Shown in pieces: positions 56,915-63,850 of a DNA stretch of 64,000 nucleotides. The notes under the pieces are model-generated. The model made no database searches. It was given only the letters and a program-made list of their open reading frames with translations, and was not told the origin of the DNA. A program made the position numbers and the translations under genes. The stretch's first letter is position 1. Each line of letters begins with the position of its first letter. The stretch comes from Escherichia coli (lineage in GTDB: Bacteria; Pseudomonadota; Gammaproteobacteria; Enterobacterales; Enterobacteriaceae). The DNA lies in the NCBI RefSeq assembly GCF_050320075.1, contig NZ_CP190018.1, one strand, 5' to 3'.

Positions 56915-58600
56915 ATGATAACCATTCCCATTACGTTTCGTATGTTGATAGCAAAGTATCTCTGTCTGCTGAAGCCCTTTTGGCTGCGTAAGAATAATAA
57001 AACTTCAGTGCTGTTAATCATTATTATCCTCGCCATGATCCTTGGCGTGGTTAAAATTCAGGTCTGGTTAAACGACTGGAATAATGATTTTTTCAATGCG
57101 CTAAGCCAGAAAGAAACCGATAAGCTTTGGCAGCTTGTCCTTTGGTTCCCTGCCCTGCTGGGGATCTTTGTATTAATATCCGTAAACAAAACATGGTTAA
57201 TTAAACTGCTGACTATTCGCTGGCGCGAATGGTTAACAGATTACTACCTTAATCGGTGGTTTGCAGATAAAAACTACTACTTCACGCAGATCTACGGCGA
57301 GCATAAAAATACAGATAACCCTGACCAACGTATCGCTGAAGACATTCTCTTACTGATCAGCAAAACGCTCAGTCTTTCATTTGGCTTCATCCAGTCACTT
57401 AGCATGCTGATCACCTTTACCGTTATTCTTTGGCAAAGCGCGGGTACGCTCTCATTCACTGTTGGTGGAACAGAATGGAATATCCAGGGGTATATGGTCT
57501 ATACCGTTGTGCTCATTGTGATCGGTGGAACTTTATTTACTCATAAGGTTGGTAAACGTATTCGTCCGCTTAATGTGGAAAAGCAACGTAGCGAAGCGAC
57601 ATTTCGAACTAATCTTGTGCAGCATAATAAGCAGGCTGAACTGATTGCGCTAAGCAATGCTGAGTCTCTACAACGCCAGGAGTTGAGCGACAATTTTCAT
57701 ACCATTAAAGAGAACTGGCATCGTTTAATGAATCGTCAGCGCTGGCTTGATTACTGGCAGAATATTTATTCGCGCTCGCTTAGCGTTCTTCCCTACTTTC
57801 TGTTATTGCCACAGTTTATTAGCGGACAGATCAATCTGGGCGGACTGATGAAATCGCGCCAGGCATTTATGCTGGTATCGAACAATTTAAGCTGGTTTAT
57901 TTATAAATATGACGAACTTGCTGAACTGGCTGCGGTTATCGATCGTTTGTATGAGTTCCATCAACTCACCGAACAGCGCCCTACGAATAAGCCTAAAAAT
58001 TGCCAACATGCGGTACAAGTGGCTGACGCGAGTATTCGTACTCCTGATAATAAGATCATATTAGAGAACCTGAACTTTCATGTTTCGCCAGGCAAATGGC
58101 TATTACTGAAAGGTTACTCTGGTGCGGGAAAAACCACACTGCTTAAAACATTATCCCACTGCTGGCCGTGGTTCAAAGGTGATATTTCTTCTCCTGCTGA
58201 CAGTTGGTATGTGTCACAAACACCGTTAATCAAAACCGGCTTACTGAAAGAGATTATTTGTAAAGCACTTCCCCTGCCCGTAGACGATAAATCGTTGAGC
58301 GAAATACTGCATCAGGTTGGTCTGGGGAAATTGGCTGCGCGTATTCATGACCACGATCGCTGGGGAGATATTCTTTCCAGCGGCGAAAAACAACGTATCG
58401 CCCTGGCACGATTAATTTTACGACGTCCGAAATGGATATTTCTTGACGAAACTACCTCTCATCTTGAGGAACAAGAGGCTATCCGCTTACTGCGTTTAGT
58501 GCGTGAAAAACTACCCACAAGCGGCGTCATTATGGTTACACATCAACCCGGTGTCTGGAACCTGGCTGATGATATTTGTGACATTAGCGCGGTTTTATAA
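56915..58600 (+). CDS. yddA: Fused ABC transporter permease/ATPase YddA
   Basis: 561-aa protein; N-terminal TM domain, C-terminal ABC ATPase (Walker A GYSGAGKTT, signature LSSGEKQR). Confidence 0.88.
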   Translation: MITIPITFRMLIAKYLCLLKPFWLRKNNKTSVLLIIIILAMILGVVKIQVWLNDWNNDFFNALSQKETDKLWQLVLWFPALLGIFVLISVNKTWLIKLLTIRWREWLTDYYLNRWFADKNYYFTQIYGEHKNTDNPDQRIAEDILLLISKTLSLSFGFIQSLSMLITFTVILWQSAGTLSFTVGGTEWNIQGYMVYTVVLIVIGGTLFTHKVGKRIRPLNVEKQRSEATFRTNLVQHNKQAELIALSNAESLQRQELSDNFHTIKENWHRLMNRQRWLDYWQNIYSRSLSVLPYFLLLPQFISGQINLGGLMKSRQAFMLVSNNLSWFIYKYDELAELAAVIDRLYEFHQLTEQRPTNKPKNCQHAVQVADASIRTPDNKIILENLNFHVSPGKWLLLKGYSGAGKTTLLKTLSHCWPWFKGDISSPADSWYVSQTPLIKTGLLKEIICKALPLPVDDKSLSEILHQVGLGKLAARIHDHDRWGDILSSGEKQRIALARLILRRPKWIFLDETTSHLEEQEAIRLLRLVREKLPTSGVIMVTHQPGVWNLADDICDISAVL

Positions 58601-58637
58601 AAACAATAAAAGCCCTGCTGTACGGAGATAAAAATAA

Positions 58638-61010: not shown

Positions 61011-61054
61011 TAGTTCGGATTTTACTTTACCGGGTAAATTCGCCCGGTTTTCGC

Positions 61055-63850
61055 ATGGAGATAATTATGAGAAACCTCTGTTTCTTACTGACGTTAGTGG
61101 CAACTCTGTTGCTCCCCGGGCGACTGATTGCCGCCGCCTTACCGCAGGATGAAAAGTTAATTACCGGGCAACTGGACAATGGCTTGCGATATATGATTTA
61201 TCCGCATGCTCAACCAAAGGATCAGGTAAATTTATGGCTGCAAATTCATACCGGTTCATTGCAGGAAGAAGACAATGAGCGCGGCGTGGCTCATTTTGTA
61301 GAACATATGATGTTTAACGGCACAAAAACATGGCCGGGTAATAAAGTCATCGAAACATTTGAGTCAATGGGCCTGCGCTTTGGTCGCGATGTTAATGCCT
61401 ATACCAGCTATGACGAAACGGTGTATCAGGTAAGTTTGCCGACTACGCAGAAACAAAATCTGCAACAAGTGATGGCAATCTTCAGTGAATGGAGTAATGC
61501 CGCAACCTTTGAAAAACTCGAAGTAGACGCTGAACGCGGCGTAATTACTGAGGAATGGCGTGCCCATCAGGATGCGAAATGGCGCACCTCTCAGGCGCGC
61601 CGCCCTTTCCTGCAGGCTAATACCCGTAATTTAGACCGTGAACCTATCGGCCTGATGGATACTGTCGCTACGGTCACACCGGCACAATTGCGCCAATTTT
61701 ATCAACGCTGGTATCAACCAAATAATATGACCTTTATCGTGGTCGGCGATATTGACAGTAAAGAAGCGCTGGCGCTGATTAAGGATAATTTAAGTAAGCT
61801 TCCGGCTAACAAAGCAGCTGAAAATCGCGTCTGGCCGACAAAAGCCGAAAACCACCTGCGCTTTAATATCATTAATGATAAAGAAAACCGGGTGAACGGC
61901 ATCGCACTCTATTATCGCCTGCCAATGGTGCAAGTGAGCGATGAGCAAAGCTTTATCGAACAAGCTGAATGGAGCATGTTGGTTCAGCTGTTCAATCAGC
62001 GTCTGCAGGAACGCATACAGTCGGGCGAGTTGAAGACTATTTCTGGCGGCACTGCGCGCAGCGTTAGAATTGCACCCGATTATCAGTCGCTGTTTTTCCG
62101 TGTAAATGCACGAGACGATAATATGCAGGATGCTGCGAATGCATTAATGGCAGAGTTGGCAACTATTGATCAGCATGGTTTTTCTGCTGAAGAACTCGAT
62201 GATGTCAAATCTACCCGTCTCACCTGGCTGAAAAATGCGGTTGATCAGCAAGCTGAACGTGATTTACGTATGCTGACCAGTCGCCTGGCATCCAGCTCAT
62301 TAAATAATACGCCGTTCTTGTCGCCGGAAGAGACATATCAACTTTCGAAACGTCTGTGGCAGCAAATTACCGTGCAAAGTCTGGCGGAAAAATGGCAGCA
62401 GTTAAGAAAGAACCAGGATGCATTTTGGGAGCAAATGGTAAACAATGAGGTTGCTGCCAAAAAAGCATTGTCTCCTGCGGCTATCCTGGCGCTGGAAAAA
62501 GAGTACGCCAACAAAAAGCTGGCGGCTTACATCTTCCCAGGCAGAAATTTATCGTTAACAGTAGACGCTGACCCACAGGCGGAAATTAGCAGCAAAGAAA
62601 CGCTGGCTGAGAATCTGACATCATTAACACTTTCCAATGGTGCCAGGGTTATTCTGGCAAAATCTGCGGGTGAAGAGCAAAAGCTACAAATTACTGCCGT
62701 ATCTAATAAAGGCGATTTAAGTTTCCCTGCGCAGCAAAAATCACTTATCGCGCTGGCAAATAAAGCAGTAAGCGGAAGCGGCGTTGGTGAACTCTCCTCT
62801 TCCAGCCTGAAACGCTGGAGTGCGGAAAACTCGGTAACCATGAGCAGTAAAGTCAGTGGCATGAATACATTGCTCTCTGTTAGCGCGCGGGCTAATAACC
62901 CTGAACCTGGTTTCCAGTTGATTAACCAGCGAATCACCCACAGCACGATTAACGATAATATTTGGGCATCGCTACAAAATGCTCAAATTCAGGCGTTGAA
63001 AACGCTCGACCAGCGTCCAGCGGAGAAATTCGCCCAGCAGATGTATGAGACGCGCTATGCTGATGACCGCACGAAATTACTGCAAGAAAATCAGATTGCA
63101 CAGTTTACTGCCGCAGATGCGCTGGCTGCCGATCGCCAGTTGTTTTCATCTCCAGCGGATATCACGTTTGTCATTGTCGGTAATGTCGCAGAAGACAAAC
63201 TCGTGGCGTTAATTACGCGTTACTTAGGATCAATCAAACACTCTGATTCGCCATTAGCCGCAGGTAAACCATTAACTCGCGCGACGGACAACGCATCGGT
63301 TACTGTAAAAGAACAAAATGAACCTTTGGCACAGGTTTCACAGTGGAAGCGTTATGATTCCCGGACACCTGTAAATCTGGAGACGCGTATGGCGCTCGAT
63401 GCTTTTAACGTCGCACTGGCAAAAGATCTACGCGTTAATATTCGTGAACAGGCCTCTGGGGCATACAGCGTTTCTTCTCGCCTCTCGGTTGATCCTCAGG
63501 CCAAAGATATCAGTCATTTGCTGGCTTTTACTTGTCAACCGGAACGACATGATGAACTGTTAACGTTAGCGAATGAAGTGATGGTTAAGCGTCTGGCTAA
63601 AGGGATCAGTGAGCAAGAACTGAACGAATACCAGCAAAACGTTCAGCGCAGCCTCGATATCCAACAGCGTAGCGTTCAACAATTAGCGAACACCATTGTA
63701 AATAGTCTTATTCAATATGACGATCCTGCAGCATGGACTGAGCAGGAGCAATTGTTGAAACAAATGACGGTAGAGAATGTTAACACTGCCGTTAAACAAT
63801 ATCTTTCTCATCCGGTGAATACCTATACCGGAGTATTGTTGCCAAAATAA
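61055..63850 (+). CDS. pqqL: Periplasmic M16-family zinc metallopeptidase PqqL
   Basis: 931-aa protein with signal peptide and inverted zinc-binding motif HFVEH. Confidence 0.88.
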   Translation: MEIIMRNLCFLLTLVATLLLPGRLIAAALPQDEKLITGQLDNGLRYMIYPHAQPKDQVNLWLQIHTGSLQEEDNERGVAHFVEHMMFNGTKTWPGNKVIETFESMGLRFGRDVNAYTSYDETVYQVSLPTTQKQNLQQVMAIFSEWSNAATFEKLEVDAERGVITEEWRAHQDAKWRTSQARRPFLQANTRNLDREPIGLMDTVATVTPAQLRQFYQRWYQPNNMTFIVVGDIDSKEALALIKDNLSKLPANKAAENRVWPTKAENHLRFNIINDKENRVNGIALYYRLPMVQVSDEQSFIEQAEWSMLVQLFNQRLQERIQSGELKTISGGTARSVRIAPDYQSLFFRVNARDDNMQDAANALMAELATIDQHGFSAEELDDVKSTRLTWLKNAVDQQAERDLRMLTSRLASSSLNNTPFLSPEETYQLSKRLWQQITVQSLAEKWQQLRKNQDAFWEQMVNNEVAAKKALSPAAILALEKEYANKKLAAYIFPGRNLSLTVDADPQAEISSKETLAENLTSLTLSNGARVILAKSAGEEQKLQITAVSNKGDLSFPAQQKSLIALANKAVSGSGVGELSSSSLKRWSAENSVTMSSKVSGMNTLLSVSARANNPEPGFQLINQRITHSTINDNIWASLQNAQIQALKTLDQRPAEKFAQQMYETRYADDRTKLLQENQIAQFTAADALAADRQLFSSPADITFVIVGNVAEDKLVALITRYLGSIKHSDSPLAAGKPLTRATDNASVTVKEQNEPLAQVSQWKRYDSRTPVNLETRMALDAFNVALAKDLRVNIREQASGAYSVSSRLSVDPQAKDISHLLAFTCQPERHDELLTLANEVMVKRLAKGISEQELNEYQQNVQRSLDIQQRSVQQLANTIVNSLIQYDDPAAWTEQEQLLKQMTVENVNTAVKQYLSHPVNTYTGVLLPK

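Follow-up and report, generated by a model that had tools for sequence, protein, structure and literature searches.

The yddA-yddB-pqqL locus of Escherichia coli as a probable Fur-repressed import operon of the Fus-like type

Here we describe three neighbouring genes, yddA, yddB and pqqL, in a stretch of 64,000 nucleotides from Escherichia coli (contig NZ_CP190018.1), which we call the window throughout. The open reading frame (ORF) list places them on the plus strand at 56915-58600 (561 amino acids), 58638-61010 (790 amino acids) and 61055-63850 (931 amino acids). These coordinates agree exactly with an earlier note on this DNA, which described a tightly spaced, co-oriented trio with gaps of 37 and 44 bp. 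The annotated gene order around them is ydeO-ydeN-ydeM-yddA-yddB-pqqL-gadB-gadC. We put the probability at roughly 85% that this region is the published Fur-repressed yddA-yddB-pqqL operon of E. coli, one of the Fus-like 'protease-associated import systems'. The operon is already known in nearly all respects, and it is a real but ordinary feature of this genome.

Of 5426 complete E. coli genomes, 4603 contain the locus at 80% or more of its length, and strain YZLc1-3 of E. coli matches a 7.3-kb stretch of it at 100% identity. The GC content of the operon is below average, at 43-48%. Among the GTDB species representatives the high-identity operon, judged by close relatives of YddB, is confined to Escherichia, apart from two contigs that are likely contaminants. 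Footprinting with these representatives was uninformative, as the YddB relatives are 96-98% identical and so too similar. A 76%-identical orthologous locus from an Escherichia-like metagenome contig (L013), which also carries gadB-gadC, served instead.

The second gene, yddB, encodes a FusA-type TonB-dependent outer-membrane transporter with a signal peptide and a TonB-box-like sequence, EEMTVYA, and is preceded by a GGAG Shine-Dalgarno sequence at 58624-58627. Plug is the sole Pfam domain found in YddB, and among all PDB sequences the protein matches only itself (6OFR) and the ferredoxin receptor FusA (4ZGV, 1e-80). The third gene, pqqL, encodes a periplasmic single-chain M16 zinc protease, a FusC homologue. 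It is 927 or 931 amino acids long depending on the start codon, and has a signal peptide, the active-site motif HFVEH at residues 80-84 and the Pfam domains Peptidase_M16 (1.7e-40) and M16_C (5.3e-54). Its matches among solved structures are itself (6OFS and 6OFT, where the crystallised protein begins at residue 27, past the signal peptide), 9LDY (7.5e-82) and FusC (6B03, 1.6e-58; 6B05 and 6BRS, about 1e-57). The entry 9LDY, an unnamed 'Peptidase, M16 family', is closer to PqqL than FusC is, and may be another PqqL-type protease with substrate-relevant data. The structures of YddB and PqqL were solved by Grinter et al. (2019, PMC6793856), who showed PqqL to be an active periplasmic enzyme of narrow specificity that is made when iron is limiting. 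An earlier paper had named YddB a homologue of FusA, PqqL of FusC and YddA of FusD (Grinter et al. 2016, PMC5095587).

The first gene, yddA (annotated at 56915-58600, with a probable real start at 56942), encodes a fused permease-ATPase of the YddA/BclA/Rv1819c family, which is related to SbmA and has the type IV fold. The protein carries the Pfam domains ABC_membrane_2 (1.4e-43), SbmA_BacA (4.7e-34) and ABC_tran (8.6e-19), and the motifs of its ATPase are intact (Walker A GYSGAGKT, signature LSSGE, Walker B IFLDE). Its closest solved structure is Rv1819c (6TQE, 2.8e-67 over residues 35-552), followed by ABCD1 and ABCD4. The Dickeya protein encoded by fusD, the gene directly after fusC, matches YddA at 37% identity across 98% of the YddA length. 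The earlier note had called YddA an ATP-binding cassette (ABC) exporter. That label is probably wrong: the membrane domain is of the SbmA_BacA/ABC_membrane_2 kind, the nearest solved relative is Rv1819c, and the characterised members of the family import. YddA shares the ABC_membrane_2/SbmA_BacA domain and a C-terminal ATPase with the YddA/BclA/Rv1819c branch, to which the derived SbmA and BacA secondary transporters also belong. Relatives on this branch import peptides, bleomycin or cobalamin. The lasso peptide ubonodin requires the YddA of Burkholderia cepacia in order to act, which implies import. A 2026 study (PMC13316013) reports that the YddA/BclA clade gave rise to SbmA, and places E. 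coli YddA in that clade with its function unknown. What distinguishes E. coli YddA from the stand-alone members of the family is that it is embedded in a Fur-controlled operon together with a TonB-dependent transporter (TBDT) and a protease.

YddA most likely starts at the ATG at 56942, which would give a protein of 552 amino acids. Three observations lead us to this start. First, the start of 12 of 15 YddA homologues falls at E. coli Met10 or at most one residue away, and none of the 15 backs the nine additional N-terminal residues of the annotation; of the other three, two are shorter and one carries an N-terminal extension of 20 residues, probably a mis-call. Second, in the L013 ortholog the frame that begins at the upstream ATG hits a TAG after six codons. 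Third, the Fur operator described below falls on the nine additional codons of the annotation. A clear Shine-Dalgarno sequence is absent at both candidate starts (56915 and 56942). The homologue with the long extension, P0033, comes from another metagenome contig (L014). Its called start, at 7997-8021 of that contig, adds 20 residues (MKMIIIIICYSV...) that are absent from the other homologues, and two overlapping 17/19 Fur boxes fall on these extra codons. We suspect the same mis-call over a Fur operator there as in E. coli yddA. For pqqL the true start is likely to be the ATG at 61067, which has GGAG 6 nt upstream (61057-61060) and is used both by the NCBI Prokaryotic Genome Annotation Pipeline (PGAP) and by the gene call in L013. 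The gap between yddB and pqqL would then be 56 bp.

Upstream of yddA a consensus scan finds a promoter-like site on the plus strand at 56873-56902. It consists of the -35 element TTGCCA (56873-56878), an 18-nt spacer and a TGn-extended -10 element, CACAAT (56897-56902), and transcription of the operon is predicted to start at about 56908-56910. Promoter-like consensus matches are no commoner in this region than expected by chance (18 found against 19.6 expected). In L013, where the coding sequences are 75-78% identical and the upstream region has otherwise diverged, TTGC(C/A)A and GTGGCACAATC form conserved islands, so that the -35 element, the extended -10 element, the Fur box and the ATG at 56942 all stay conserved. 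The Fur box, GCTAATGATAACCATTCCC, lies on the plus strand at 56911-56929 and matches the consensus GATAATGATAATCATTATC at 15 of 19 positions, as does its counterpart in L013. It is the joint best consensus match in the window. It sits 8 nt downstream of the promoter-like site, with the -10 element on one side and the probable start codon on the other, and shares bases with the annotated ATG at 56915. A second Fur-like site, on the minus strand at 57013-57031, matches the reverse complement of GTTAATCATTATTATCCTC at 14 of 19 positions and falls within yddA, in the isoleucine-rich codons of a transmembrane helix. We also considered a Fur-like half-site between the -35 and -10 elements (56875-56893, 12/19) as the main operator; it is not conserved in L013 and was dropped.

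Both of the remaining sites are bound in vivo according to published data. Chromatin immunoprecipitation with exonuclease treatment (ChIP-exo) of Fur in MG1655 gave two peaks for yddA, at 1577233-1577267 and 1577347-1577374 in U00096.2 numbering (PMC10164565). We mapped these by a shift of +1976 from U00096.2 to NC_000913.3 followed by alignment to the window; as a check on the shift, the adhP peak falls correctly in the adhP-maeA gap, and the yddA start corresponds to 1579342. The peak at 1577347-1577374 maps to 56907-56934 and covers the 15/19 Fur box, and the peak at 1577233-1577267 maps to 57014-57048 and covers the 14/19 site. A Fur box for this operon had been computed earlier (Huja et al. 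2014, PMC4145685), so the search upstream of yddA that the earlier note proposed had already been done. Fur binding upstream of the operon was also reported by Beauchene et al. (2015, PMC4676285), together with a positive effect of RyhB on yddAB-pqqL RNA. Our own scan for duplexes with the RyhB core, a crude method that used a provisional RyhB sequence, gave nothing above the window background: -17.9 kcal/mol in the leader and -11.1 and -14.6 kcal/mol in the gaps, against a background of -14.6 +/- 4.3 kcal/mol.

The three genes also respond together to the loss of Fur. In Dataset 3 of PMC10164565, which compares wild type and delta-fur cells with two replicates each, the MG1655 RNA levels rise from 3.9 and 1.9 to 26 and 25 for yddA, from 7.2 and 8.3 to 63 and 61 for yddB, and from 12.5 and 12.0 to 63 and 60 for pqqL. 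In W3110 the corresponding increases are from about 0.3 to about 30, from about 4 to about 57 and from about 9 to about 62. The published log2 ratios of delta-fur to wild type for yddA, yddB and pqqL are 3.06, 2.95 and 2.27 in MG1655 and 6.9, 4.0 and 2.9 in W3110, and the neighbours ydeM and gadB are unresponsive in both strains. An operator at the promoter, published in vivo binding and published derepression thus place the operon in the Fur regulon. In addition, reverse transcription PCR (RT-PCR) has shown yddA, yddB and pqqL to be co-transcribed, with amplicons across both junctions (Subashchandrabose et al. 2013, PMC3855560), which is the operon mapping that the earlier note had suggested. 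The same study found all three genes induced more than 30-fold in urine and raised in a delta-fur mutant, and identified yddB and pqqL as fitness genes in systemic infection. With one strand, short gaps, a junction-spanning transcript and common regulation, the view of the trio as one co-directional unit holds.

A good illustration of how this arrangement has been kept over evolution comes from six loci that we retrieved via YddA homologues at 37-83% identity. Besides L013 and L014, these are a plasmid-like contig carrying Rep3/ParB (L009), an Orbaceae genome (L010), Dickeya dadantii (L011) and Pseudomonas yangonensis (L012). In all six, the ABC gene adjoins genes for a Plug-type TBDT and an M16 protease of about 930 amino acids. 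Two gene orders occur, ABC-TBDT-M16 and TBDT-M16-ABC, the latter led by a TonB gene or by genes for an extracytoplasmic function (ECF) sigma factor and FecR, and the identities to YddA, YddB and PqqL drop in parallel across the loci. The best 19-bp Fur consensus match in each locus (12-18 kb each) is located ahead of the leading gene of the cluster in 6/6 cases, scoring 17/19 in L009 and L014, 16/19 in L010, 15/19 in L011 and L013, and 14/19 in L012, where two upstream sites are tied. Because the trio is adjacent and the top Fur box is upstream in every locus, linkage and iron control are, judging from the sequences, conserved features of the module.

The plasmid-like contig deserves a comment of its own. 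Its positions 1-15074 carry homologues of yddA, yddB and pqqL (58, 57 and 47% identity) beside Rep3, ParA/ParB, integrase and IS21 helper genes. A near-perfect Fur box, GATAATGATAATTATTAGC (17/19), lies 10 nt before the ATG, with a promoter of the form TTGAAA-N16-TATAAT. This context suggests that the module may be mobile. The L009 homologue had no match in the plasmid collection.

How close is the E. coli operon to the Fus system of Pectobacterium and Dickeya (fusB-fusA-fusC-fusD)? YddB is 29% identical to the FusA of Dickeya, PqqL is 24% identical to FusC, both being single-chain M16 proteases, and YddA is 37% identical to FusD. Both systems are without a periplasmic binding protein, and both have a Fur-box-like site upstream. 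The E. coli order is ABC-TBDT-protease, whereas that of Fus is TonB-TBDT-protease-ABC. The protease and ABC genes of Dickeya and Pseudomonas overlap by 4 bp, whereas the E. coli genes are 37-56 bp apart, with a hairpin in the second gap. A further difference from Fus is that PqqL spares plant and human ferredoxin (PMC6793856). Nonetheless, a FusA-type TBDT, an adjacent FusC-type M16 protease with an HxxEH motif and a FusD-type ABC gene all lie side by side, as expected of a member of the Fus-like family. The operon also resembles the iron-uptake loci fhuACDB, fepA-entD and fecABCDE in having a Fur operator at the promoter, derepression in delta-fur cells and a TonB-dependent outer-membrane component. 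It differs from them in having neither a periplasmic binding protein nor a type II importer permease, in containing a protease, in giving no growth benefit in iron-limited lysogeny broth (LB) and in its patchy distribution.

Several points weigh against assigning the locus to a Fur-repressed Fus-like import system. The import of protein by YddB is inferred from FusA, and the proposed role and direction of transport of E. coli YddA from its relatives. In the study of PMC6793856, PqqL left globins uncut as well as the human and plant ferredoxins, and mutants deleted for yddB or for pqqL grew normally in iron-limited LB; the phenotyping of deletions under iron limitation that the earlier note called for was therefore already published, with no growth phenotype. 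Treatment with a chelator alone failed to induce the genes in CFT073 (PMC3855560), and on this account iron may not be the sole signal for the operon. Wild-type basal RNA climbs along the operon (about 0.3, 4 and 9 in W3110 and about 3, 8 and 12 in MG1655), a hint of weak internal transcription independent of Fur or of differences in RNA stability, and the single unit would then not be absolute. The operon is dispensable in some lineages, given the 726 genomes without it described below. Finally, the locus has no FusB-type TonB gene (TonB_C), its neighbours being ydeM upstream and gadB downstream, whereas Dickeya has one. That said, FusB is not universal in the Fus-like family (PMC6793856), and its absence therefore does not exclude membership.

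Between yddB and pqqL lies a GC-rich hairpin with a short T tract, at 61029-61051 on the plus strand (stem-loop 61029-61048), which is terminator-like but weak. Its sequence is ACCGGGTAAATTCGCCCGGTTTTCG, with a 7-bp stem, ACCGGGU/GCCCGGU, a 6-nt loop and then TTT(T)CG. The earlier note had marked a hairpin at this place, and folding confirms it: the free energy is -11.9 kcal/mol (z = -3.4), and just 1 of 200 shuffled sequences folds equally well. Three other Escherichia loci, with variable flanks, keep the stem unchanged. In L013 the CCGGG/CCCGG core is kept while the loop is wholly different and longer, the closing A-U pair has become G-C, and an 11-bp stem is followed by TTTT. Across an alignment of five sequences with eight consensus pairs, five pairs are invariant, one shows the compensatory A-U to G-C change and two have changes on one side; the outermost of the one-side-changed pairs is also broken (U-U) in the window sequence. 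We regard this as modest but real evidence of selection on the structure. A comparable hairpin was not found in the distant loci L009 and L014, and a scan of 56000-64000 against Rfam at E<=1 matched no family.

Could this hairpin be a partial intrinsic terminator that sets pqqL below yddAB? The GC-rich stem with its T tract, the stability relative to shuffled sequences, the compensatory change and the stronger 11-bp version with TTTT in L013 would all suit such a role. On the other side, the T tract is only 3-4 residues long, a run too short for our simple terminator scan, which for that reason did not flag the site, and the hairpin lacks a counterpart in the two distant loci. The expression data speak more directly. 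The RNA of yddB and pqqL is equal in delta-fur cells of two K-12 strains (about 62 versus 61 in MG1655 and about 57 versus 62 in W3110), and the RT-PCR crosses the junction; for these two reasons the hairpin does not seem to be an effective attenuator in delta-fur cells. We therefore consider a partial terminator unlikely. The idea that the hairpin 'may tune readthrough' has not fared well, as the structure is conserved, yet RNA does not drop across it in delta-fur cells. It is more likely to be a stability or processing element, or to have no role, than to be an attenuator.

Another candidate for a terminator lies beyond pqqL, at 63857-63886 on the plus strand and ahead of the gadB promoter region. 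This probable operon terminator has a 10-bp stem, GCCCCGTCAAC/GTTGGCGGGG, followed by ATTTTA, and a folding energy of -18.6 kcal/mol (z = -4.5; 0 of 200 shuffles fold equally well). It has only four T and was missed by the simple terminator scan. A different hairpin occupies its position in L013.

What, then, does the operon do? The earlier note proposed a secretion module or one for uptake and processing. The second half of this proposal is supported, in its Fus-type form, by the published work on YddB and PqqL (PMC6793856), and the first half is not, as the characterised relatives of YddA import. The note's remark that the substrate of the module is not established still stands, since a review of December 2025 lists the PqqL substrate as n/a (PMC12731061).

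One alternative is that the operon is an ordinary uptake system for a small molecule, such as a siderophore or metal chelate, and that the job of the protease is unrelated. PGAP does call YddB a 'TonB-dependent siderophore receptor' in some genomes, and Fur regulation would be expected of such a system. But YddB matches no siderophore receptor among the solved structures at E<=1e-3, the locus has no periplasmic binding protein, and the protease stays linked to the TBDT and ABC genes in 6/6 distant loci despite rearrangement. Deletion is also harmless in iron-limited LB even in cells without the other iron TBDTs (PMC6793856). We find this alternative very improbable.

We give still less credence to a secretion machine, in which YddA would export a cargo, YddB would be its outer-membrane exit and PqqL would mature it. 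The type IV 'exporter' fold of YddA fits this picture, as does a weak similarity to type I secretion ABC proteins that is far below the cut-offs, and one TBDT acts in protein secretion, according to the case of PopC as cited in PMC6793856. However, the nearest characterised relatives of YddA import, and the only solved relative of YddB is the importer FusA. PqqL reaches the periplasm with its own Sec signal peptide (PMC6793856). Fur repression suits uptake, and the locus lacks a membrane-fusion or TolC-like partner.

An equally poor fit is the notion that the three genes are independently transcribed and separately regulated neighbours, which the data above already largely refute. It draws on the listing of yddAB and pqqL as separate transcription units in some tables (PMC4145685), on the climb of basal RNA from yddA to pqqL with a declining fold induction, and on the terminator-like hairpin before pqqL. 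These are outweighed by the amplicons that cross both junctions, by the response of all three genes to fur deletion and by the linkage conserved across genera. Furthermore, neither yddB nor pqqL is preceded by a Fur-like site above 12/19, and neither intergenic gap contains a promoter-like match beyond chance in the consensus scan, although weak promoters are below its reach. A role of pqqL in the synthesis of pyrroloquinoline quinone (PQQ), as its name implies, is almost certainly wrong: the name stems from complementation of Methylobacterium pqqE/F mutants, as mentioned in PMC3855560, and the match to PqqF is weak (48.8 bits with the NCBIfam equivalog model, against a cut-off of 320), while E. 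coli makes no PQQ (PMC3855560) and PqqL is periplasmic and FusC-like (PMC6793856).

Returning to the Fus-like import system, we can sketch how it might work. When iron is scarce, Fur would leave its operator, which lies between the -10 element and the start codon. With the cell's own TonB as its source of energy, YddB would import a small iron- or cofactor-bearing host protein, and PqqL would cleave this protein in the periplasm. YddA, as an importer-type ABC transporter with an 'exporter' fold, would then move the released cofactor or peptide into the cytoplasm; that YddA imports the PqqL product is our best inference from its relatives. The yddB-pqqL hairpin would be a conserved RNA element for stability or processing rather than an attenuator. 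A more specific version of this host-protein pipeline is possible but, on balance, doubtful. In it YddA would take a PqqL-made peptide or peptide-bound cofactor, and not a free iron-sulphur cluster or iron, and the hairpin would be a functional RNA element that fixes how much transporter is made relative to protease, acting as a signal for stability or processing or as an attenuator under certain conditions.

Some genomes of the species lack the operon. One identical 6.3-kb deletion (window about 56633-62934) is shared by 726 of the 5426 complete E. coli genomes (13%). It fuses the end of ydeM with the final third of pqqL, with the junction AACGCTCC|CCCACAGC (compare 8990-9005 of the deletion locus L002), so that the promoter, yddA, yddB and two thirds of pqqL are gone. 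Among the carriers are strains named O25b:H4, JJ1887, ZH063 and ZH193, with a two-piece variant in LF82 and NRG857C. Several of these carriers we take to be ST131 or phylogroup B2 strains. The deletion is of note in that yddB and pqqL are reported fitness genes in CFT073, itself a B2 strain. Strain E. coli HS-02 has a larger deletion, in which ydeN, ydeM, yddA, yddB and pqqL are all gone between ydeO and gadB and only about 110 bp downstream of pqqL is kept.

A few observations concern the surroundings of the operon. The stretch from ydeO to yddA (window 51500-58000) is AT-rich, with a GC content of 36-46% against 50-53% in the flanks, and the region upstream of yddA at 56800-56870 is very A/T-rich. 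This composition is compatible with horizontally acquired DNA that is possibly bound by H-NS. A minus-strand ORF of 40 amino acids at 56589-56711, called YneP in K-12 and 'hypothetical protein' in the window genome, runs opposite to the 3' end of ydeM and overlaps it, a short way upstream of the yddA promoter region. The only other Fur-like match of 15/19 in the window, at 34311-34329, is inside the coding sequence of a SIR2-family deacylase and probably due to chance. That gene (33654-35033) adjoins hipBA and an autotransporter gene, and the 3.5-kb segment that carries it is present at 80% or more of its length in only 211 complete E. coli genomes.

In summary, our additions to what is known of this operon are an operator that lies over the annotated yddA start, a probable YddA of 552 amino acids, its placement in a family of importer type, a conserved hairpin between yddB and pqqL that seems not to attenuate in delta-fur cells and one identical deletion in 13% of complete genomes. 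These are small additions, which serve mainly annotation and the design of experiments, and they bring the substrate of the operon no closer. The operon itself has been reported to contribute to the fitness of uropathogenic E. coli during systemic infection, and represents a widespread and poorly understood route for whole-protein uptake by Gram-negative bacteria. If the peptide pipeline is true, it would offer, together with the corrected YddA start and the position of the operator, a concrete way to hunt for that substrate.

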